Shown here: positions 1 to 16,017 of the stretch, one piece after another
Position numbering within the stretch: the stretch's first letter is position 1
Layout of the letters: every line of letters starts with the position of its first letter
From: Gemmatimonadota bacterium
GTDB taxonomy: Bacteria > Gemmatimonadota > Gemmatimonadetes > Gemmatimonadales > GWC2-71-9
Assembly: GCA_039586365.1 (NCBI GenBank)
Contig: JBDHKN010000014.1
Coordinates: 1-61,461 of the forward strand
Length of the DNA stretch: 61,461 bases
Direction of reading: 5' to 3'
Notes under the pieces: model-generated
Told to the model about the DNA's origin: nothing
What the model saw: the letters and a program-made list of their open reading frames with translations, nothing else
Database searches by the model: none
Program-made: the position numbers and the translations under genes

Positions 1-81
1 GGTCAAGGGTCGACGAGTGTCCCCAAAACGTAGGTCGATGTCGCAGGAACGCACTGGCGTGGCCTCTCTGATCTCTGGATC

Positions 82-336
82 TTAGATCACGCGGCGGAAG
101 AAGTCATCCCTTCGCGGATCGATCTCAACACCCTGGAGCTTGACAGGTGTCAGGCCATCCTGCTGACCCTTGGGGACGATACGAATAGCCCGCCGCACGT
201 TGGGGGCCTTCCCGGCCAGGAGAACAGATGCAACCAGATCGGGGCCTGCATACCATAAACCGCGATCGACCTCGACGGAGTTCACACCAATGCTCGGTAC
301 CGTGCTTGCTTCGTTGTACTGGGCGCGGAGTGGCAA
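82..336 (-). pseudogene. Internal fragment of a family B DNA polymerase resembling casposon-type PolB
   Basis: LPLRAQYN...IGVN...LWYAGPDLVASVLLAGKAP..RRAIRIVPKGQQDGLTPVKL.G.VEIDPRRDDFFRRVI resembles, from recall, the PolB segment preceding motif B in casposon-type enzymes. In-frame stops bound it on both sides. Confidence 0.62.
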
Positions 337-566
337 TCTCTACCCAACTCTTCACCCTTCAAATCTAATCTATATGCGACATAGGTAGTTTTCGGGTTGT
401 TTGCTAGCAAAGTGCCTGGTGCTGGTCTGAGGTCACTGCCTGTACAGCTATCGGTCCCCAGTCTAAGGCTCAATCCCGGTCCAGTCCTGCTAGCAACTCA
501 ACCTCCAAGTCCTGGTCCCGGTGCTATGCTGTGCTGCTCCATGGGGCGGAAGGGTGGCGGGGTTCC

Positions 567-605
567 GTTGCCTGGCCCGGCCCGGGGTCTGGGCGTAGTT
601 TAGGG
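567..605 (+). promoter_or_regulatory. Upstream motif shared between kinase paralogs, with -10-like TAGTTT
   Basis: GTTGCCTGGCC...GGGCGTAGTTTAGGG matches 26221-26259 (GTCGCCTGGCC...GGGCGTAATTTAGGG) at identical spacing; both precede GTG ACC GAA starts. Confidence 0.55.
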
Positions 606-628
606 GCAGGATCAGGAGGTCATGCAAT

Positions 629-3600
629 GTGACCGAAGATCTCCTAGGCCGTCTGAAGTCTGCGCTGGCTGACCGCTACCAGATTGAACGGGAGTTGGGT
701 AGCGGTGGGATGGCCACGGTCTATCTCGCCAAGGACCTGAAGCATGAGCGGCAGGTAGCCGTCAAGGTTCTCCGTCCTGAGTTGGCTGCAGCGCTAGGCT
801 CAGAACGGTTCCTCCGTGAAATCAAGATCGCTGCGAATCTGAATCACCCCCACATACTGCCACTGCATGACTCCGGAGATGCCGACGGTTTCCTCTACTA
901 CGTGATGCCGTACGTGGAAGGTGAATCACTCAGAGATCGGCTCAAGCGCGAGAAACAGCTTCCGATAGAGAACGCTCTCAGGATCGCCAGCGAAGTAGCC
1001 GACGCACTCGGCTTCGCACACGACCACAACGTCATCCACCGCGACATCAAGCCCGAGAACATTCTGCTAGAAGCAAAACACGCAGTCGTCGCTGACTTCG
1101 GTGTGGCTCGGGCAATCGAGCAAGCGGGAGAGACGAGACTCACAGAGACCGGGATCGCGATTGGCACACCAGCCTACCTGAGTCCAGAGCAGGCGAGTGG
1201 CGAGCGCGAGTTGGACGGCAGGAGCGACATCTACGCACTTGGCTGTGTGTTGTACGAGATGTTGGCTGGCCAGGCTCCGTTCACCGGCCCTACAGCCGAG
1301 AGCATCGTACAACAGCATCTCACCGCGAAGCCACACTCTGTAGCAGAAGTGCGGCCAACCGTTCACAGTGAAATAGAAGCCGCAGTGTCCAGAGCACTGG
1401 CAAAGGCACCCGCTGATCGGTTTCAGACCGGGGAGGAGCTTGTCACTGCATTGAGTGCAGTTTCCAGCATGCCCTCAGCTGCCACGTTGCCCGGCATCGC
1501 GTCACGCTGGAGCCATCCCGTGGCAGTGTCAGGGTTATTCGGTGCTGGAGCGGTGGCCGTGCTTGGCGTGGTCTACCTCCTCATGATGCGGCTTGGCCTG
1601 CCTGACTGGGTCTTGGTGGCCGCTGCCGTACTCCTAGTCGTGATCCTGCCGTTCGCACTGGGTACTGGACTAGTAGAGCGGCAGCGGGCGACTAGGACCG
1701 TACCAACTCCCTCATCCGGCTGGGGCAGTGTGGCGCACCGCTGGCTGCGGTGGCGGAAAGCGGCCCAGGGGAGCGTCATTGCTTTCGTTGGTCTCGGTGT
1801 GGTCACCACCGGCTACATGGGGATGAGGACATTGGGCATAGGGCCCATGGGCACGGTGATGGCGAGAGGGGTGCTGGAAGAGCAAGCTGAGATCATCTTA
1901 GCTGATTTCGAGAATCGTACTGCGGACTCGCTGATGGGCGTCACGATCACCGAAGCTCTGCGAATCGATCTGTCTCAGTCACAAGTGGTACGACTGGTCG
2001 ACCCAGCTACCATCGAGGCGGCCCTGGAGCGGATGGAGGTTGATCGCGTCGCCTTGTTTGACGATGAGCTGGCCCGCGAAGTGGCTCTTCGTGAGGGCAT
2101 CAAGGCAGTAATCGCGGGCGAGGTCGGCCAGCTCGGTCAAGGGTACATGGTATCGGCGAGGCTGATAGCCCCATCAGACGGAGATGTGCTGACAGCCGTC
2201 CGTGAGCGGGCGGACGGCGATGACCAGCTCTTTGATACCGTAGACCGGCTGTCGCGGCAGCTCAGGGAGCGGATCGGTGAATCCTTGAGAGATGTGAGAG
2301 CCAGCGCACCGCTGGAACAAGTCACCACTTCGTCGCTCGAAGCGTTACGTCTGTATACCCTAGCCTGGCCAGAGCAATCGATTGAGCTAATGGAGGAGGC
2401 AGTCCGTATCGACTCGACTTTTGCCATGGCATACTGGCGCTTGGCTGGGCAGTACGGGAACGAGGGTCGGATGCGTGAGCGGAATACCGCCGCACGAAGA
2501 GCATTCCGCTATCGTGACCGGCTGCCCCTCGTCCAGCGTTATCACGTAGAGTCCTTGTACTACTCCTATGTGGAGGGCGACCGCGACAAACGGATTTCGG
2601 CGTTACGCTCGGTCTTGGAGCTGGACCCATACAACACCTCAGCTATGAACAACCTCGGGAACTCGTTGAGCGGGCTGCGCAGGTTTGCCGAAGCCGAGAG
2701 CCTATACATCCAAGCGCGTGCTGTCCGCCCACATCACCTGCATTTCCAGGGCACTGTGGCTTCCCAAGTCAACCAGGGGAAGTACGAGGACGCCGACACC
2801 ACCCTTGATCTCTTCGCCGAGCATTTTCCTGGTCACCCAGGGTACTTCCGGTCCACGATCCGCTATGCAGCCGCCCGACATGACCTGGAAACCGTCGCGC
2901 TGTATCTCGATTCGCTGGAGCTGACGCAGCGAGAGAGCGTCTTGTGGAGGTACCGAGTCAGCGTCCATAGGACCTGGGTAGCCTTGAGACAAGGCAAGCT
3001 CTCCGAGGCCGAATACTACCTCCGGCAGGCGACAAGCCTACAGGAGCAGCGAGGACTGCTTGGAGCTTGCCTGGATCTGGCTGTGTCCCATCTCGGTAGA
3101 GTGGATATTGTCTACCGGGGCAATCCGTCCGCTGCCTGGCGGAAGGTCGAGGAAGCCTTGGAGCTATACCCGCTGGATTCGATTGCTCCCGAAGCGAGAC
3201 CATACGAGAATCTCGCGATTGCTGCAGCTATGGCGGACAGGGCCGACCAGGCGCGAGCATGGCTCGCAGAGCGGGTCGCGCTTGGGGAATCAGGCGAACT
3301 TGGCAGACTGAGGTCGGACCAGGAAGCTCGGGTCAGCGGCTACATCGCCCTCGCAGAGCTAAGGCCAGATGAAGCGATCACGGCCTACCTAGCATCCCAT
3401 GAGGGGTTTGCCTGCATCATCTGCGCACTCCCGGCCATAGCCCAGGCCTACGACCTCGCCGATTTGCCGGACTCCGCAATTGTCTTCTACGAGCGCTACC
3501 TGACCACACCTTGGATCAGGCGCTTGGAGGAAGATGCCTGGAACCTGCCCGGCACTCTGAAGCGTCTTGGCGAACTCTACGAGCAACGCGCCAACCACGA

Positions 3601-3718
3601 GAACGCGATTCACTACTACAACGAGTTCGTAGAGTTATGGCAGGAGGCCGACCCCGAGCTACAGCCGCAGGTGGAGGATGTGAGGCAGCGGATTGCGCGG
3701 TTGATGGGAGAGCCGTAA
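629..3718 (+). CDS. Ser/Thr protein kinase (Hanks type) with about 3 TM helices and C-terminal TPR region
   Basis: GSGGMA, VAVK, HRDIKPEN, DFG and GTPAYLSPE motifs intact; hydrophobic helices about aa 298-400; TPR-like repeats; AGGAGG RBS. Confidence 0.95.
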   Translation: MTEDLLGRLKSALADRYQIERELGSGGMATVYLAKDLKHERQVAVKVLRPELAAALGSERFLREIKIAANLNHPHILPLHDSGDADGFLYYVMPYVEGESLRDRLKREKQLPIENALRIASEVADALGFAHDHNVIHRDIKPENILLEAKHAVVADFGVARAIEQAGETRLTETGIAIGTPAYLSPEQASGERELDGRSDIYALGCVLYEMLAGQAPFTGPTAESIVQQHLTAKPHSVAEVRPTVHSEIEAAVSRALAKAPADRFQTGEELVTALSAVSSMPSAATLPGIASRWSHPVAVSGLFGAGAVAVLGVVYLLMMRLGLPDWVLVAAAVLLVVILPFALGTGLVERQRATRTVPTPSSGWGSVAHRWLRWRKAAQGSVIAFVGLGVVTTGYMGMRTLGIGPMGTVMARGVLEEQAEIILADFENRTADSLMGVTITEALRIDLSQSQVVRLVDPATIEAALERMEVDRVALFDDELAREVALREGIKAVIAGEVGQLGQGYMVSARLIAPSDGDVLTAVRERADGDDQLFDTVDRLSRQLRERIGESLRDVRASAPLEQVTTSSLEALRLYTLAWPEQSIELMEEAVRIDSTFAMAYWRLAGQYGNEGRMRERNTAARRAFRYRDRLPLVQRYHVESLYYSYVEGDRDKRISALRSVLELDPYNTSAMNNLGNSLSGLRRFAEAESLYIQARAVRPHHLHFQGTVASQVNQGKYEDADTTLDLFAEHFPGHPGYFRSTIRYAAARHDLETVALYLDSLELTQRESVLWRYRVSVHRTWVALRQGKLSEAEYYLRQATSLQEQRGLLGACLDLAVSHLGRVDIVYRGNPSAAWRKVEEALELYPLDSIAPEARPYENLAIAAAMADRADQARAWLAERVALGESGELGRLRSDQEARVSGYIALAELRPDEAITAYLASHEGFACIICALPAIAQAYDLADLPDSAIVFYERYLTTPWIRRLEEDAWNLPGTLKRLGELYEQRANHENAIHYYNEFVELWQEADPELQPQVEDVRQRIARLMGEP

Positions 3719-3739
3719 CACTGGCGGCGGAGCAATCAG

Positions 3740-6565
3740 ATGACTGACGCCATCGACCGCCTTAAGACCGCCCTCACCGACCGCTACGCCATCGAGCGAG
3801 AACTCGGTAGCGGTGGTATGGCTACCGTCTACCTCGCCGAGGACGTGAAGCACCACCGCAAGGTAGCGGTGAAGGTGCTGCGCCCCGAACTCGCTGCTGC
3901 ACTCGGCGCTGATCGGTTCCATCGTGAGATAGAGATCGCCGCTAATCTGCACCATCCCCACATCCTGCCACTCTACGACTCCGGTGATGCGGACGGCTTC
4001 CTCTACTACGTCATGCCGTACATCGAAGGTCAGTCGCTCCGTGAAAAGCTCGCCCATGAGGGTGAGCTACCGATTCCCGAAGCTGTCCGAATCCTCCGAG
4101 ACGTCGTTGACGCACTGTCAGAAGCACATGATCACGGTGTAGTGCACCGCGACATCAAACCTGACAATGTGCTGCTCACCAAGCACCATGCTGTGGTCAC
4201 CGATTTCGGAGTGGCCAAAGCGGTGAGTGAAGCCACCGGCGCTCAGAAGCTCACCACCGAAGGCGTAGCACTCGGCACACCAGCGTATATGTCCCCCGAG
4301 CAGGCCGCTGCTGATTCTCACATTGACCACAGAGCCGACATATATGCTGTGGGTGTTGTTGCCTACGAGTTGCTCACGGGCAGGACTCCGTTCCTCGGCA
4401 CCACTCCACAGATGATCCTCTCGGCGCACATGACTGATACTCCAGAGCCGGTAAGCAAGTATCGGGAATCAGTCCCTCCTCCTCTAGAGCAGTTGGTGAT
4501 GAGGTGCTTGGAGAAAAAGGCCGCCGATAGGTGGCAGAGTGCTGAGGACCTGTTGCCACATTTGGAGGCGTTGGTGACGCCGAGTGGGGGGATCACGCCC
4601 ACAGGCACGATGCCGGTGGATCGGGTAGCAAAAGGTCGATGGATGACGGCAGGGGCTGCGGTCGCGGTGGTCGCTCTGGTGGTGGCCCTGTGGCAGCCTT
4701 GGGCGAGTGAGGACGTGGCGGCCGAGGGCGCCAGTTGGGCCTGGACGATCCTGGCGGAAGTCGAGGGTTCGGCACCCGAGGACACCCGCAGTCTCGTCGG
4801 GAGCCTCCTGGCTGGTGATATCGATGCCTCCGGATCGCTCCTAACGCTGCCACAGGACCAGATACTGCGCGGTCTGGCAAGCGCCATGAAGCCGGACACC
4901 ACGAGTCTGACGCAGTCGGTTGCCAGAGAGCTGGCAGAGCGAGGCGGGATCGGGACTGTGTTCGCACCGGAACTGGATCTGGTAGGCGGCACCTACGCCC
5001 TGACGGTGCGGGTCCTGCATGCGGCAGGGGACAGCGTGCTGGCCACAGAACGTGTTTCGGCGGCGAATGACGACGCGCTGATTCCGGCCAGTCGTGAGGT
5101 CGTGGAGACGTTGATTCCTATCCTGACGGTGTGGATGGGCGGTGAGGTCAGACGACCCAGGGCCAACCCGCCGGTTACCTCGTCCCTTGCGGCCTTCCGA
5201 AAACACCAGGAGGCGCAACGAGCCAACGCACTCGGGCGGTACCACGAGGCAATCGCATTATTTCGGGAAGCCCTGGCGATCGATCCCGACTTCGCTGCGG
5301 CCTGGGTAAGGATGGGGGGCGCCTACAGTAATGCGCGATTCCGTGACTCCGCTGAGTACGCATGGCGGGAGGCTCTCGAGCGCCCTGAGCGCCTTACTGA
5401 GGACCAGCGTCTGAACTTAGAGGCCCGGCTTGCAGGTGACTGGGTCGCTCGATTCCAGCGCAGCGAGCGACAGTACCGGGAGACCGGCATAGCTAGTAAC
5501 GCATACGCAGCAGCCCTCGCCGATGGAATGGGCCGGTACGAGGACGCAGTGGCCATCTGGGAGCAAATGGCTGAGCAGTCTCCGTTCGGGACTTCGGACT
5601 TCGTCAAATGGAACTTGGCGTCCATACTGTTGTGTTTGGGACGGGTCGAAGAGGCCGAAGCCGTGGCGCGCCGTCTGGAAGGAACCCCCCGTGAACTCCC
5701 TGTGAACGCGAAGATTGCGCTGAGGAAAGGCAATTGGGGAGAAGCCGAGCGTCTGGCGGTGGACGTGGCGAGGGACCCGGCCATGAGCGTCAGATTCCGG
5801 TCCGACGCGATCTGGGTACTCGCGTCCGCTCGTGCGGCTCAGGGCCGAATCCACGAGGCGGTCTCCGCACTGCATGAGATGATACGAACGAACCAGCGTC
5901 CGGGCCGGGAGTTGATCCACCGCCGAGCGCACTTGAACCTCCTGATTCTCACAATTGTGGGAGGCCTGACCGCGGAGGCGTGGGACTTGGAGAGGCTCCA
6001 GGCCGACACGACGGAAGAGGCGAGGGTACTGTCCGGGCTCTGGGCCGCCGAGTTGGGTGATACGGCGTTCGCGAGATCCTACCTCGAAGAGTTACCAGTC
6101 CCGGAGTTCGGCGAGTTCGCTCCGTCCACACACCAAGAGGCAACCGTTGCCGCTCTCCATGCCCGCGTCGCCGGGCGCAGACTGGATTGGGAGGAAGCCG
6201 TCCGACTGCTGGCGCCGGTCACTGGAGACCGTACGCCGAGGGGGCAGTTGGCGCACACCCAACTCCTCAACTGGGTCGTCGCCGAAGCGTACGAGGAACT
6301 CGGGCACCTGGACTCTGCGGTCAAGTTGTACAGTGGTATTGCCGACGGGTACCGGTTCGTCTTCGATGAGGTTAACGGCTTCGGCCTCACCTACTCGTTT
6401 GCCCACCGCGAGGCTGCTCTCCTCTACGGCCAGCTCGGTCAGGACGCCGAGGCGATCGAGCACTGGCGCGCGTTCCTGGACGCCTTCACCGACCCCGATC
6501 CCGAGTTCGAGTGGATGATGGAGGAGGCGCGGGTGGAATTGGACAGGCTTCGTAGAGGACGCTAG
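3740..6565 (+). CDS. Ser/Thr protein kinase with single TM helix and TPR region
   Basis: GSGGMA, VAVK, HRDIKPDN, DFG, GTPAYMSPE; TM AGAAVAVVALVVALW; TPR ALAIDPDFAAAW; GGAG RBS. Confidence 0.95.
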   Translation: MTDAIDRLKTALTDRYAIERELGSGGMATVYLAEDVKHHRKVAVKVLRPELAAALGADRFHREIEIAANLHHPHILPLYDSGDADGFLYYVMPYIEGQSLREKLAHEGELPIPEAVRILRDVVDALSEAHDHGVVHRDIKPDNVLLTKHHAVVTDFGVAKAVSEATGAQKLTTEGVALGTPAYMSPEQAAADSHIDHRADIYAVGVVAYELLTGRTPFLGTTPQMILSAHMTDTPEPVSKYRESVPPPLEQLVMRCLEKKAADRWQSAEDLLPHLEALVTPSGGITPTGTMPVDRVAKGRWMTAGAAVAVVALVVALWQPWASEDVAAEGASWAWTILAEVEGSAPEDTRSLVGSLLAGDIDASGSLLTLPQDQILRGLASAMKPDTTSLTQSVARELAERGGIGTVFAPELDLVGGTYALTVRVLHAAGDSVLATERVSAANDDALIPASREVVETLIPILTVWMGGEVRRPRANPPVTSSLAAFRKHQEAQRANALGRYHEAIALFREALAIDPDFAAAWVRMGGAYSNARFRDSAEYAWREALERPERLTEDQRLNLEARLAGDWVARFQRSERQYRETGIASNAYAAALADGMGRYEDAVAIWEQMAEQSPFGTSDFVKWNLASILLCLGRVEEAEAVARRLEGTPRELPVNAKIALRKGNWGEAERLAVDVARDPAMSVRFRSDAIWVLASARAAQGRIHEAVSALHEMIRTNQRPGRELIHRRAHLNLLILTIVGGLTAEAWDLERLQADTTEEARVLSGLWAAELGDTAFARSYLEELPVPEFGEFAPSTHQEATVAALHARVAGRRLDWEEAVRLLAPVTGDRTPRGQLAHTQLLNWVVAEAYEELGHLDSAVKLYSGIADGYRFVFDEVNGFGLTYSFAHREAALLYGQLGQDAEAIEHWRAFLDAFTDPDPEFEWMMEEARVELDRLRRGR

Positions 6566-6649
6566 CATCTCAGCGACTACTCTGATGGCTTCGTGCTGCT
6601 CGGTTACCATCCTTGATCGCTTGCTGCCCGCTGTCGCGTCAGTGGCCTT

Positions 6650-6889
6650 TCCCTTCCGGATACGGTCTCTCCCACGGCTCCGATTCCGACCTGAAAGCGG
6701 CGTCGGTATTGACGCGTATGACACGCTCCGATTTGGCTTCGCTGCAGCCAAGGTCTGCGCCACGCGCTCAACCACTGGTGCCACGGCTCGTGACCATTTC
6801 ACACCGGTGAGTGCCAATTGTTGTGTCGCTGGTGGCATGACTCGGCAGGCACCTTGGCGGTTCTCGAAGAAGTCAGCCTTGCGGAACGC
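6650..6889 (-). pseudogene. C-terminal fragment resembling Cas1-solo/casposase
   Basis: Extending ORF 6092..6838 upstream in frame gives AFRKADFFENRQGACRVMPPATQQLALTGVKWSRAVAPVVERVAQTL...IPTPLSGRNRSRGR, resembling from recall the C-terminal part of bacterial casposon-type Cas1. An in-frame stop lies just upstream and the catalytic core is absent. Confidence 0.58.
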
Positions 6890-7045
6890 CGCTTGGAGCG
6901 GCCGCAGCTGCTACCCCCACGCACCCACGCTGCGAAGGCCGGAGCGCTAGCGACATCAGCCGGTCCTAGGAGAACCCGGGCAAAGCCTTTACATTACGAC
7001 TGTATTACTGCTGTCAGCCGTTAATATTACAAGGTAAATGACGTC

Positions 7046-8362
7046 ATGAAGCGCCTGATCACCCCCAGGCTGGTTGCCTGGAAGAACTCACAGCGACGCA
7101 AACCGCTCATCGTCCGCGGCGCCAGGCAGGTGGGCAAAACTCACTCCATCAAGTCGTTTGGAGAGGAGCACTTCGACGAGTGTGCGACCGTCGATCTGGA
7201 AAGGAACCGCGGCTGGCACCGGATCTTTGGCGACGACTTAGATGCCCGGCGCATCCTCTCGGAACTGCGGGTCGTGCTCGACAAGAGCATCGAGCCGGGC
7301 AAGACGCTGCTGTTCTTCGACGAGATTCAGAGCTGCCCTCGGGCAATCCTGGCACTCCGCTATCTGTACGAGGAGGTTCCCGAGCTGCACGTGATCGCTG
7401 CAGGCTCGCTGCTCGATTTCGCGCTCTCGGATATCTCGTTTCCGGTGGGTCGGGTGCAGTTCCTGGAGATGTCTCCCTTGGTCTTCGCCGAATACCTGTG
7501 GGCGATAGGACGAGACCGGTCTGCCGAGGTGGTCCTATCGAATCCGATCAGAGTGCCCGATTCGGTCCACCTATCGTTGCTGGCAGATCTCAGAGACTAC
7601 TTCTTCGTGGGCGGCATGCCGGAGAGTGTCCTGGCGTACGAACGGAACCGCTCGGTCCGGGATAGCCGTGCGGTGCACCACGAGCTGTGCGAATCCTACA
7701 GGCAGGATTTCGCCAAATACGCGCCGCGCGCCGACCCCTACTGCCTCGACGCCGTACTCGCCGGAACCGCCCGCCAGGTCGGGAGGCAGGTCAAGTACAC
7801 GAGCCTGGCGGAGGGCTACTCCGGTCCCACGATCAGGCGGGCGTTTAATCTGCTCACCAAAGCGCGCGTGGCGAGGAAGGTGCCGGCCACCAACCCGACA
7901 GGCGTGCCGCTGGGTGCCGGCGCGTCACCGCTACGCTTCAAGGCGCTGATGGTCGATATCGGATTGATGCAGCATCTACGCGGTGTTCCGATCGATCTCG
8001 ACTACGCCAAGGCGGATCTACTGAAAATCCACGAGGGTGACATGGCTGAGCAGTTCGTCGGGCAGGAGATGCTGGTGTCGCAACGGGCCGATCTGTACTA
8101 CTGGTCCCGCCAGGCCAAGAGCAGCACTGCCGAGGTGGATTTCTTGGCCGTGATTGGGGGCTCGATCGTTCCCGTCGAAGTGAAGAGCGGCCCGTCCGGG
8201 AGGCTCCGCAGTCTCCATCTGCTGCTCGATTCCTATCCGAACTGCGAGCGCGCCTACGTCTTCAGCACTGCGCCCTACGCCGAGCTTCCGGAACAGAGAC
8301 TCACGTTCCTTCCACTGTACTACGCGCTTCGGGCGACGTCGGAGCGGGCAATCGGAAGTTGA
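7046..8362 (+). CDS. AAA+ ATPase (AAA_14) with DUF4143 and C-terminal PD-(D/E)xK-like motif
   Basis: Walker A GARQVGKT, Walker B FFDEIQ, GGMPE, C-terminal EVDF...PVEVKSG. Confidence 0.9.
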   Translation: MKRLITPRLVAWKNSQRRKPLIVRGARQVGKTHSIKSFGEEHFDECATVDLERNRGWHRIFGDDLDARRILSELRVVLDKSIEPGKTLLFFDEIQSCPRAILALRYLYEEVPELHVIAAGSLLDFALSDISFPVGRVQFLEMSPLVFAEYLWAIGRDRSAEVVLSNPIRVPDSVHLSLLADLRDYFFVGGMPESVLAYERNRSVRDSRAVHHELCESYRQDFAKYAPRADPYCLDAVLAGTARQVGRQVKYTSLAEGYSGPTIRRAFNLLTKARVARKVPATNPTGVPLGAGASPLRFKALMVDIGLMQHLRGVPIDLDYAKADLLKIHEGDMAEQFVGQEMLVSQRADLYYWSRQAKSSTAEVDFLAVIGGSIVPVEVKSGPSGRLRSLHLLLDSYPNCERAYVFSTAPYAELPEQRLTFLPLYYALRATSERAIGS

Positions 8363-8528
8363 TGCCGCGGCGGGTCCACGGGCGAACCAGCCATTCCCGG
8401 ACCGGCCTCGATGGATCCGGTGAAACGACTCCGGGAGCTTGATTAGAAAATGCCCGCAAATCGCGGTTTCTCGGCGTCATGGATCGCACTTTCGGCACCA
8501 GATTTCACTTAGGTTGACAGTACCACCG

Positions 8529-11638: not shown

Positions 11639-12098
11639 GTTGAATACGAGGCGGACCCTTCCGAAGTTTCGCGGTGTCGTCGAGGGGTGGTCGGTCATCC
11701 ACTTTGCATAGGGGCGAAGGAGACGCCATGTCGAGCGCCAGGGCTGAATCCATGCGGAAGGGCAACAAATACGTCTCCCCGATCACGCTAGTACAGCTGG
11801 AGTGCGCCCTGCGGTGTGCTTCGCGAAAGCCATCCCGAAGAGGCGGAGTCACTCTATGAGTTACCGCTGCTAGTGGTCAGTGACCTGCGGACGATGTGGC
11901 TAACCGAATATCCGCGTGAAGTTCTCTGGGATCTCAAAGAAGTGCTCCTAAGTGTGTCCAGGGTGCGTGCGTTTCCGAGTCTTCCAGCGCGTGCCTTTCC
12001 CAGTATTCCGATGTCGCCTTTGTGGCGGCGAGTTTCCCCTAGCGAGAGTGATAGAGCAGACAGTCACATGCCCGATGAGCCAATGCATGAGATTGGCC

Positions 12099-12230
12099 CT
12101 CGAAGCCGGCAAGATCACACCGATAATCGACAGTACCTACGCGCTGAGTGAGGCCCGCGAGGCTCTCCGGCACATGGTCGAGGAAGAACCCCAGGGAAAG
12201 GTGATCATCACCGCGGCAGAAGCTGCTTGA
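12099..12230 (+). pseudogene. C-terminal remnant of an NAD(P)-dependent alcohol dehydrogenase/quinone reductase (MDR)
   Basis: LEAGKITPIIDSTYALSEAREALRHMVEEEPQGKVIIT is a typical MDR C-terminus; no matching upstream coding sequence. Confidence 0.75.
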
Positions 12231-12360: not shown

Positions 12361-13146
12361 GTGCGTTTTCCCGAAGAGGTGACTCCACTACTTGCTGAGC
12401 TGCCGCACGCGCTCAAGCATCTTCTTGGCACGAACCTGGTGGGTTTCTATGTATACGGCTCCGTATTAGAGCCAACGTTTGACCCAGCGCGGAGCGACGT
12501 CGACTGCATTGCCGTGACGGAGCGGGCGTTGACCGATGTCGAGTATCGCCAACTCAATGACTGGTTGACCGAGACCGCTGCAGCCGATCCGTGGGTCAAG
12601 CGCCTGCAGCTGTCGTTCTTGAACAAGAGAAGCATTCTCTCCGAGGACCGGACGGCATGCCTCTATCAATTCGGGGTTCTAACACGCAGCGGCTCGGACG
12701 GAAATCCCCTCATCTGGATGGACTTGTTTCGGCGTGGCCGCACTCTCTTTGGCGCCGGGCCGGAGTCATTTGTTCCGGAAATCACGCCTGAGATCGTTCA
12801 CCAGGCACTGGTTCGAGAGGTTGGCTACCTGCGAGAGGAACTGAGCGGCAAGCCTGGTAGCGAATGGCGTGATAAGCTGTCCTATCGGATCTATGCTGTT
12901 CTCACACTCTGCAGGGTTCTCTACTCAGTGCGGACCGGCAAGGTTGCATCGAAGCAACGGGCTGCTCGCTGGGCACTCGACCATGTCCCAGCGGACTGGC
13001 ACGACCTGATCCATCGGGCATTAGAGATTGGTCAATCCGGTGGACTAGAAGGTCTCCCTGTCCCACGCCTATTTGCATTCATCGAGTATACGCACGCTCA
13101 GGTTCATTCCACGCCACCGGTTTCCCCAGATGTCGCTGACGTGTGA
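12361..13146 (+). CDS. Nucleotidyltransferase, AadA/ANT-like with DUF4111-type C-terminal domain
   Basis: GFYVYGS...SDVD motif; YAVLTLCRVLYS..TG.V.SK..AA.WA. Confidence 0.85.
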   Translation: MRFPEEVTPLLAELPHALKHLLGTNLVGFYVYGSVLEPTFDPARSDVDCIAVTERALTDVEYRQLNDWLTETAAADPWVKRLQLSFLNKRSILSEDRTACLYQFGVLTRSGSDGNPLIWMDLFRRGRTLFGAGPESFVPEITPEIVHQALVREVGYLREELSGKPGSEWRDKLSYRIYAVLTLCRVLYSVRTGKVASKQRAARWALDHVPADWHDLIHRALEIGQSGGLEGLPVPRLFAFIEYTHAQVHSTPPVSPDVADV

Positions 13147-13227
13147 GCAGCCTAACACGTCAAGCGGAATGGGGGTGTCCAACTGCAGCTCGGACAAGCA
13201 CGGCGCGGATTAGACGGCGCCCCAGCC

Positions 13228-14916: not shown

Positions 14917-16017
14917 ATGACCGACCGGCTGAACCGCCTGATGACCACACTCGCCGACCTTTGTCGCGTCGCGCTCGTCCTCGCCGGGCTCCTCGTCGGT
15001 CCGGCGTTCCCCACGGCCACGGTCGCTCAGCAGCAGCAGCCGGCGCCACTCAAGGTCGTGCTGGATACCGACCTCGGATTCGCCAGCGACGATGCGATGG
15101 CGCTGCTCCTGCTGCTACAGTCCAGCAACGTGGATCTGCTCGGAGTCACCGTGGTGACCGGAAACGCTTGGCTGGAACAGGAAGTGGCCAATGCGCTGCG
15201 TCTGCTCGAGATCGCCGGCCGCGAAGAGATCCCGGTTCACGCCGGCGCCGCGGACCCTCTCGTGAACAGCATGGCAGAGATGAGGCTGCGGGAGTCCCTG
15301 TACGGTGAGACCAGCGAGGGCGGCTACAAGGGGGCGTGGAAAAGCGACGGTCCCGGGCGCGACGAGGTCCGCCCGCCCGACACCCGGTTTGCTCGGAGGC
15401 AAGCGGAGCCGCTCTCCGCCACCGAATTCCTCATCCGCACGATCCGCGACAACCCCGGAGAGGTGGTCGTCGCCGCCATCGGCCCGCTGACCAACGTTGC
15501 GCTAGCTGTAGCTGTGGATCCCGAAGTGGCTCGGTTGGCAAGGAAGCTGGTGGTCATGGGCGGTGGGATCGGTACCCGGCCTGAGTTCAACTTTTGGATG
15601 GATCCCGAAGCGGCGCGCATGGTGCTCCGTGCACCCTGGCCCGAGATCGTCCTCACGCCGCTCAACATCTGCCGGCAGGCACCGTTCACGCCGGAGGTGG
15701 CAGAGACAGTTGCTCGTGACGACTCCCCCATAGCCCGCTACTTCGCCGACACATTCGTGGCAGACCACTGGGCACCCGTAACCAGCCTCATGTACGACCA
15801 GATAGCTGTGCTGTCGCTGTTGGAACCCGATGTGGTGCTGCGCTCCGAAACCCTGTGGCTGGACGTCGAGATCGACCATGGCGCCTCGTATGGCACGACT
15901 CTGTCCTGGGATGCCCGGCTGGAACCACCGCCCGGCGCTAGACAGGTCAAGGTCCAGTTCGACCTCGACTATCCGCGCTTCGTCGAGCACTTTGTCGCGC
16001 TGATGGTGCAGCCATAG
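14917..16017 (+). CDS. Nucleoside hydrolase (IUNH family), probably exported
   Basis: DTDLG..SDDAMA, VTVVTGN, IGPLTNVA, MGGG, EFNFWMDPEAA; signal-like N-terminus ending TVA-QQ. Confidence 0.92.
   Translation: MTDRLNRLMTTLADLCRVALVLAGLLVGPAFPTATVAQQQQPAPLKVVLDTDLGFASDDAMALLLLLQSSNVDLLGVTVVTGNAWLEQEVANALRLLEIAGREEIPVHAGAADPLVNSMAEMRLRESLYGETSEGGYKGAWKSDGPGRDEVRPPDTRFARRQAEPLSATEFLIRTIRDNPGEVVVAAIGPLTNVALAVAVDPEVARLARKLVVMGGGIGTRPEFNFWMDPEAARMVLRAPWPEIVLTPLNICRQAPFTPEVAETVARDDSPIARYFADTFVADHWAPVTSLMYDQIAVLSLLEPDVVLRSETLWLDVEIDHGASYGTTLSWDARLEPPPGARQVKVQFDLDYPRFVEHFVALMVQP

Follow-up and report, generated by a model that had tools for sequence, protein, structure and literature searches.

Remnants of casposons beside a Ser/Thr kinase pair in a Gemmatimonadota bacterium, with complete relatives mostly at promoters

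How did fragments of a solo Cas1 and of a family B DNA polymerase (PolB), the pair taken to mark casposons, come to flank two intact kinase genes in a Gemmatimonadota bacterium? We addressed this question for positions 82–6889 of contig JBDHKN010000014.1 (contig C4), which was analyzed over its entire length of 61,461 nt (the window) and belongs to assembly GCA_039586365.1 (G000; 5.44 Mb, 86% complete). A first-pass annotation had reported two protein-like minus-strand fragments on either side of two intact plus-strand kinases, which is correct, and had read them as one decayed casposon-like element. Our analysis suggests that most of this segment is probably the cas1-side arm of a dead casposon with the kinases as cargo, and that the polB stub is likely the leftover of a neighboring casposon.

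The proposed likeness of the two fragments to Cas1 and PolB was borne out by homologue searches. The Cas1 frame 6650–6889(−), searched among 487 candidate proteins with longer proteins kept at E ≤ 0.001, matched 19 longer proteins, 17 with the Pfam Cas1 family PF01867 (best identity, 77–82%). The PolB frame 85–336(−), searched among 122 candidate proteins, matched 25 at 49–61% identity, five of them with PF03175. As bare fragments, neither reached a relevant Pfam or NCBIfam family, and 400 order-level genomes held no closer relative of the Cas1 fragment. The Cas1 piece proved about 70 nt longer than first annotated (reaching 6581 instead of 6650). It is 75% identical in nucleotides and 73% in amino acids to an intact element (locus L063), and 73–82% identical to intact solo Cas1 copies with a helix-turn-helix (HTH). 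It begins downstream of the conserved E164, H247, D259, and E262 of intact homologues; no active-site residue is included, and both the catalytic core and the C-terminal HTH are missing. The PolB piece falls between motifs A and B and contains no catalytic residue. Its open reading frame ends at 82–84, which is not polB's own stop: homology to another locus reaches about 85, where polB homology starts. These pieces are the sole such matches in the 86%-complete genome, where we found neither an intact cas1 nor an intact polB of this type, and the relic is not self-mobile.

The junctions at about 338 and 6888 are not assembly artefacts, because contigs from two other studies bridge both with 0–3 differences. 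The junction at 338 is crossed by the public contigs X1 (205–539, 0 differences) and X5 (110–373, 1 difference), and that at 6888 by X5 (6629–6936, 3 differences). For the junctions at 85 and 6581, no bridging record was found among those listed.

Looking for intact cas1–polB loci with terminal inverted repeats in related genomes, as the first-pass annotation had suggested, was productive. We collected 83 loci, comprising 79 from a species-genome scan (from the best 80 of 103 matches) and just four, short and distant, from a metagenome scan. In 62 of them polB was within reach, and every time it preceded cas1 on the other strand (57 loci were simple and 5 had extra pieces; two pairs are duplicates); the other 21 had no polB in reach. 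When 400 other genomes of the phylum were screened, a near-full solo Cas1 together with PolB was present in seven, on one contig in six, and divergent in all six. The fragments derive from true casposons, and since all relatives with both genes are divergent, the co-orientation seen in the window differs from their native layout. Where enough flank was available (55 loci), 22 elements were complete casposons of 10.5–17 kb with inverted repeats starting GGG and perfect (14/14) target duplications; one more complete element was found in G423, and partial relics with a repeat in G344, G127, G641, and G388. The distance from cas1 to its own end is 1.7–7.1 kb in the 22 complete elements and about 6.25 kb in the window. 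The complete casposons among loci L073–L137 come from Acidobacteriota, Gemmatimonadota, Gaiellaceae, and a Patescibacteria-labelled record, which bears out the earlier hint of a casposon lineage in this host group. In several of them, repeats adjoin with 14 bp between them, as in a CRISPR array.

Among intact Cas1 proteins, the closest is that of L063, a Gemmatimonadota record. Its gene order is a MerR-type HTH gene, PolB, an HNH-like gene, and a 172-aa gene, with a 333-aa gene and Cas1 running divergently. The HNH-like motif was read by eye, and Pfam gives only DUF7097; a homologue of this gene was detected in 7 of the 22 complete elements.

No intact repeat is left in the window, as had been noted before, and yet a piece of one was missed. 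By alignment to congeners, 342–500 begins with the inner half of a terminal repeat of casposon type and continues into sub-terminal DNA; the outer ~21 nt of the repeat is replaced by the polB piece (Table 1). We scored repeats with a two-box matrix trained on 44 independent casposon ends, and tested each sub-terminal alignment against 1000 shuffles. The repeats of congeners G402 (contig C312) and G403 (contig C164) scored 20.9 and 21.3, higher than any of the 10.87 million positions in the window's own genome (maximum 18.4); taken by itself, the remnant at 342–357 reached just 4.3 with the inner-box matrix. Searching the genome with a 16-column repeat matrix produced 57 hits at score ≥14, and none that was informative within the window. 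The sub-terminal stretch 330–530 aligned to G402 with a score of 251 (shuffle maximum 171), to G403 with 163 (maximum 137), and to contig C50 of its own genome with 161 (maximum 140), and was surpassed by none of the shuffles in each case; 570–640 is 94% identical to G402. G402:C312 opens with a complete repeat, which is followed by ~250 bp and then by homologues of kinase 1 and kinase 2; the first kinase gene lies about 280 bp inside the repeat. The G402 end was searched in 250 genomes of the family, with a clear match only in G403.

Table 1. Features of the relic and its right-hand neighbor (positions in the window)
Feature	Position	Strand	Basis
Stretch like DNA 175–290 bp inside a second candidate casposon end (own contig C50)	1..85	+	46/53 nt to C50:2024-2076, E 1e-10
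Internal casposon PolB fragment	85..337	−	Residues ~432–516 of ~1050-aa PolB, mapped on P0021
Inner box of casposon terminal inverted repeat, by alignment	342..357	+	Aligns to inner repeat half in congeners G402:C312 and G403:C164
Sub-terminal region and kinase 1 leader	358..628	+	Alignment to congener ends
Intact Ser/Thr kinase 1, 1029 aa (kinase, predicted membrane segment, TolB-N-like + TPR region)	629..3718	+	Pkinase E 6e-52; TPR
Intact Ser/Thr kinase 2, 941 aa (kinase, predicted membrane segment, TPR)	3740..6565	+	Pkinase E 5e-50
Internal casposon Cas1 fragment	6581..6888	−	Residues ~280–383 of ~450 aa, by full-length homologues
Possible worn outer terminal-repeat piece (weak hint)	6899..6918	−	13/20 to G402 outer repeat
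AAA_14 + DUF4143 ATPase, adjoining the relic	7046..8362	+	PADLOC candidate PDC-S01 model, E 1e-128

Both kinases retain the VAxK, HRD, and DFG motifs. The kinase domain of kinase 1 is 85% identical to the gene just inside the G402 repeat, and residues 1–302 of kinase 2 are 93% identical to the second kinase of that contig; the C-terminal parts differ in both. Past the 3′ end of kinase 2, similarity to congener G406 continues as far as 6580; homology to Cas1 takes over at 6581. The family appears modular, with kinase domains and leader kept at 85–93% identity (G402:C312, G406) and C-terminal sensor/TPR halves swapped between congeners, which carry the same kinases. The window's kinases are not special to the casposon, because the family has about 85 loci in the genome and none of the 22 complete elements carries one. 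A defence role was considered and found unsupported: the kinase domains match the models of the defence kinases PD-T4-6 and MAD6, but the match is confined to the kinase domain at 179–184 bits against an NCBIfam cut-off of 460, and such genes occur at about 85 genomic loci.

The polB stub is on the outer side of the repeat remnant and faces 1–85, away from the remnant; this is a stretch that resembles DNA inside the candidate end on C50. For this reason we read the stub as the polB-side arm, and likely a leftover, of a neighboring casposon in the opposite orientation. Judged by sequence likeness, 1–85 is likely the sub-terminal region of such a neighbor, its repeat lying off the contig; the core motif of this stretch also occurs in three congeners with no visible casposon context. 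There is precedent for a displaced stub, as L107 has a co-oriented polB piece 5.5 kb downstream of cas1, and L074 and L131 are similar. A stack of at least three casposon ends was also seen at G278:C2:344407-377192; the ends are spaced by 14 bp, and the stack includes two cas1 genes, a single polB, and two kinases that lie close to ends or to cas1. A G278 kinase of the window's family (58% identity) starts about 270 bp inside the repeat at a repeat-14 bp-repeat junction.

We consider it fairly probable that 342–6888 represents the cas1-side arm of a casposon, now dead, with kinase cargo, and that the polB stub came from a back-to-back neighbor in a stack that deletions have since collapsed. 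The order of the parts, from the repeat through kinase 1 and kinase 2 to the inverted cas1 piece, leads to a cas1-side arm with the kinases as cargo, and congener G402 shows the same layout of a repeat followed by the kinase pair. Several observations weigh against this reading. No intact repeat pair or target duplication survives in the window, and its left flank is missing, position 1 being the end of the whole contig. No contig joins a G402-type end to cas1 or polB, so the link rests on the repeat profile and on target geometry; in G402 itself, polB is confined to a different contig and nothing matched cas1, and L063, with the closest Cas1, shows no match to this end. The leader motif also precedes kinases beside tRNA and integrase remnants in G407 and G402, and none of the 22 complete casposons has a kinase of this family. 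Finally, the identity gap between the two pieces (82% for Cas1 and 56% for PolB to L063 over matched regions) had to be rejected as proof of two sources, as it failed calibration on 57 intact loci. Across these loci Cas1 and PolB identities were weakly coupled (r = 0.28, short regions), and 59 of 75 intact pairs with 70–90% Cas1 identity showed ≤56% PolB identity. This weak coupling suggests frequent exchange of the two casposon arms.

The uninformative identity gap leaves room for a single casposon, rearranged by an inversion with breaks in polB and in the cas1-side repeat and then by deletions, which would yield the same order and strands. The same parts suffice for it, and a weak outer-repeat-like 20-mer (13/20) lies right past the cas1 piece, where such an inversion would put it. 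However, this 20-mer has no matching target geometry and a matrix score of 2.0; its background is 2.9e-4 per position, yet 16 such sites occur in the first 16 kb. The inversion also needs a break inside a repeat, for which we saw no precedent, whereas neighbors in opposite orientation are seen. We therefore regard one inverted element as a real but minor possibility. It is improbable that the kinases are part of a recombination hotspot of the host beside which casposon scraps gathered, never having travelled in an element. The ~85 family loci, the tandem kinases common in relatives, the shuffled C-terminal halves relative to G402, and the lack of this kinase family in the 22 complete elements would all fit such a hotspot; nevertheless, kinase 1 lies at an equal distance inside the repeat in the window and in G402, a family member does likewise in G278, and host genes at the target sit on the outer side. 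Hardly credible is the literal form of the first proposal, a single element with co-oriented cas1 and polB and kinases inserted mid-element. It accounts for two minus-strand pieces on either side of the kinases, but 62 of 62 relatives are divergent, the repeat remnant separates polB from the kinases, and both pieces are internal ones that the kinases alone did not cut. Of the proposal that the element captured or was invaded by the kinases, capture thus stands, as the kinases sit just inside the repeat remnant, and invasion does not.

If 342–6888 is such an arm, the following course may be envisaged. As established for other casposons, the casposase joins the ends of the repeats to a staggered target, which is duplicated on repair and stays reusable (sections of PMC9939771 used here); tandem insertion by reuse of a preferred site, with tandem and decayed archaeal copies, is described in the consulted part of PMC4779613. 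The clade would likewise reuse one promoter −35 site and stack there in both orientations. Cargo would be acquired between cas1 and the element end, and the cas1-side arm of one element would have carried the kinase cassette. At least four deletions may then have removed core genes and the outer repeat, and the kinases, with their own leader, would have been retained after the element decayed.

The promoter site was suggested by the relatives' targets. Of the 22 complete elements, 16 have a duplication with TTG[AC]C at one of its ends, a feature expected in 0.4% of 14-mers. A TAnnnT box lies 16–18 nt past the hexamer in 15 of these 16 targets, compared with 345 of 7069 control TTG[AC]C sites (4.9%); in the sixteenth, another repeat comes next. 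The elements are related, so these counts are not independent draws, although the target sequences differ. Element orientation at the target is nearly even (9 versus 7), and host genes sit on the outer side of the repeat. The rule looks looser in Gemmatimonadota: of five complete elements from the phylum, one (L090) is in full agreement, G228 and G077 occupy a common site that departs from it, and the G423 target does not fit the −35/−10 rule. Single ends that fit in the phylum are those of G344, the window's own genome (C50), and G403 (with a degenerate −35). The end in G344, from the same family, is at apparently the same promoter as in L090, a Gemmatimonadales record.

The second candidate end of the window's genome, at G000:C50 ~2050–2311, follows a 14-mer ending TTGAC at the −35 of a tRNA-Leu(GAG)/tRNA-Thr promoter. 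Its repeat starts GGGATA, resembles that of AceAut-C1 by eye, and is followed by an unannotated 174-codon frame; it scores only 7.8 on the two-box matrix and rests on sub-terminal homology, target geometry, and the by-eye likeness. The promoter is conserved in five of six congeners (the sixth is masked), and the congener sequences upstream of it all differ. A 14-mer at 13159 in the window (13/14 to the C50 target) was considered, and not supported, as the far duplication that would join C50 to C4 in one island; it is one of three genomic near-matches, lies in an attC-like stretch, and is probably a chance match. We found no overlap between the ends of C4 and C50. Targeting of tRNA 3′ ends was also rejected: none of the seven phylum loci has a tRNA, and of the 19 complete elements that were scanned, just L097 and L112 are close to one, on its 5′ side. 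At L097:857-958 the casposon is ~12 bp upstream of the tRNA-Glu 5′ end, with no TTGAC motif.

The relic belongs to a variable island (1 to about 15030) whose pieces map to scattered congener sites; longer conserved synteny with congeners begins only at ~15031. The island includes the PDC-S01-like ATPase listed in Table 1, a type absent from the 22 complete casposons searched, as well as PadR with an ABC permease, TfoX_C, and a gene fragment at ~12098–12230. At 12361–13225 an AadA_C/nucleotidyltransferase gene is followed by an integron attC-like stretch recognized by eye (CCTAAC ... ATTAGAC). A nucleoside-hydrolase-like frame at 14917–14960 starts, by eye, like the kinase N-termini and possibly has a chimeric 5′ end. 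Rfam reported only a tRNA, a promoter scan of 1–7100 stayed at chance level, and a repeat search in 1–8500 gave only the kinase–kinase similarity and chance pairs. Sequencing-run shares were ≤0.31 and were not used as habitat evidence.

What the locus adds is modest. The relic is dead DNA, a decayed member of a known casposon kind, and its additions are kinase cargo and a Gemmatimonadota host; its value lies in pointing to casposons that carry signaling genes and leave them behind. The wider survey adds Gemmatimonadota to the hosts of a bacterial casposon group in which most complete elements are located at promoter −35 boxes. This raises the question of how a Cas1 integrase finds a promoter, for which the HTH of Cas1, an accessory HTH protein, or RNA polymerase are candidates; the intact relatives L063, L090, and G150 are better suited to it than the relic. 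A far-reaching extension, which we think unlikely to hold, is that the large expansion of Ser/Thr kinases in Gemmatimonadota was carried by promoter-targeting casposons. These would dock at the −35 element without breaking promoters, stack, and leave behind cassettes of a kinase with its leader that survive the casposon itself; the casposase, or a partner of it, would read sigma-70 promoter DNA. In the literature covered, which left out the 2017 review PMC5665730 and supplement file 1 of PMC4779613, we found no paper on casposon −35 targeting or Gemmatimonadota hosts; the part of PMC9966878 seen mentions an unpublished casposon survey.

How does the group compare with known systems? The intact relatives match the Cas1 models of Pfam, NCBIfam, and PADLOC, and their sources annotate them as CRISPR Cas1. 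Unlike CRISPR Cas1, however, they adjoin PolB between inverted repeats, and CRISPR Cas1s of the same phylum are only 25–37% identical to them over partial length. Among solved structures, the intact L063 Cas1 is most similar to PDB 6OPM (E 6e-21), which we take to be the casposase of M. mazei, from the euryarchaeal family 2; the CRISPR Cas1 entry 4N06 is nearly equal (E 3e-20), so the 6OPM match alone is not diagnostic. The relatives' Cas1 and PolB both carry an HTH, as in family 2. Their PolB gives only borderline matches to PF03175 (organellar/viral PolB) and has no solved relative. Its motif C is CDTDS, which is also the name given in the consulted part of PMC7544198 to the cluster with the A. 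boonei casposon PolB. Family 2 is like the present group in its tandem copies, inactivated copies, and solo repeats (as far as covered in PMC4779613), and unlike it in having archaeal hosts and targets at tRNA 3′ ends or intergenic sites.

The closest likeness is to family 3, defined along with casposons themselves in PMC4046053, of which selected sections are drawn on here, as for PMC4779613. The window differs from this family in holding fragments only. In those sections the bacterial targets are given merely as "intergenic", and neither Gemmatimonadota or Acidobacteriota hosts nor kinase cargo are among the hosts and cargo named for the family. The relatives share with AceAut-C1 a solo Cas1 that ends in an HTH, together with PolB, an HNH-like gene, terminal repeats, and a target duplication (PMC4046053; PMC4779613, same sections), and with NitAL212-C1 a duplication of 14 bp (same sources). 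Bacterial hosts, and the MerR-type HTH and HNH-like genes of L063, are further family 3 features. The AceAut-C1 repeat starts GGGATAG, and its 15-nt direct repeat holds GTCAA, the reversed −35 pentamer, at the outer end (quoted portion of PMC4046053), as in the relatives' targets. Because this repeat start and the position of GTCAA match the relatives, their ends and targets make it most likely that the group falls in family 3 or forms its sister.

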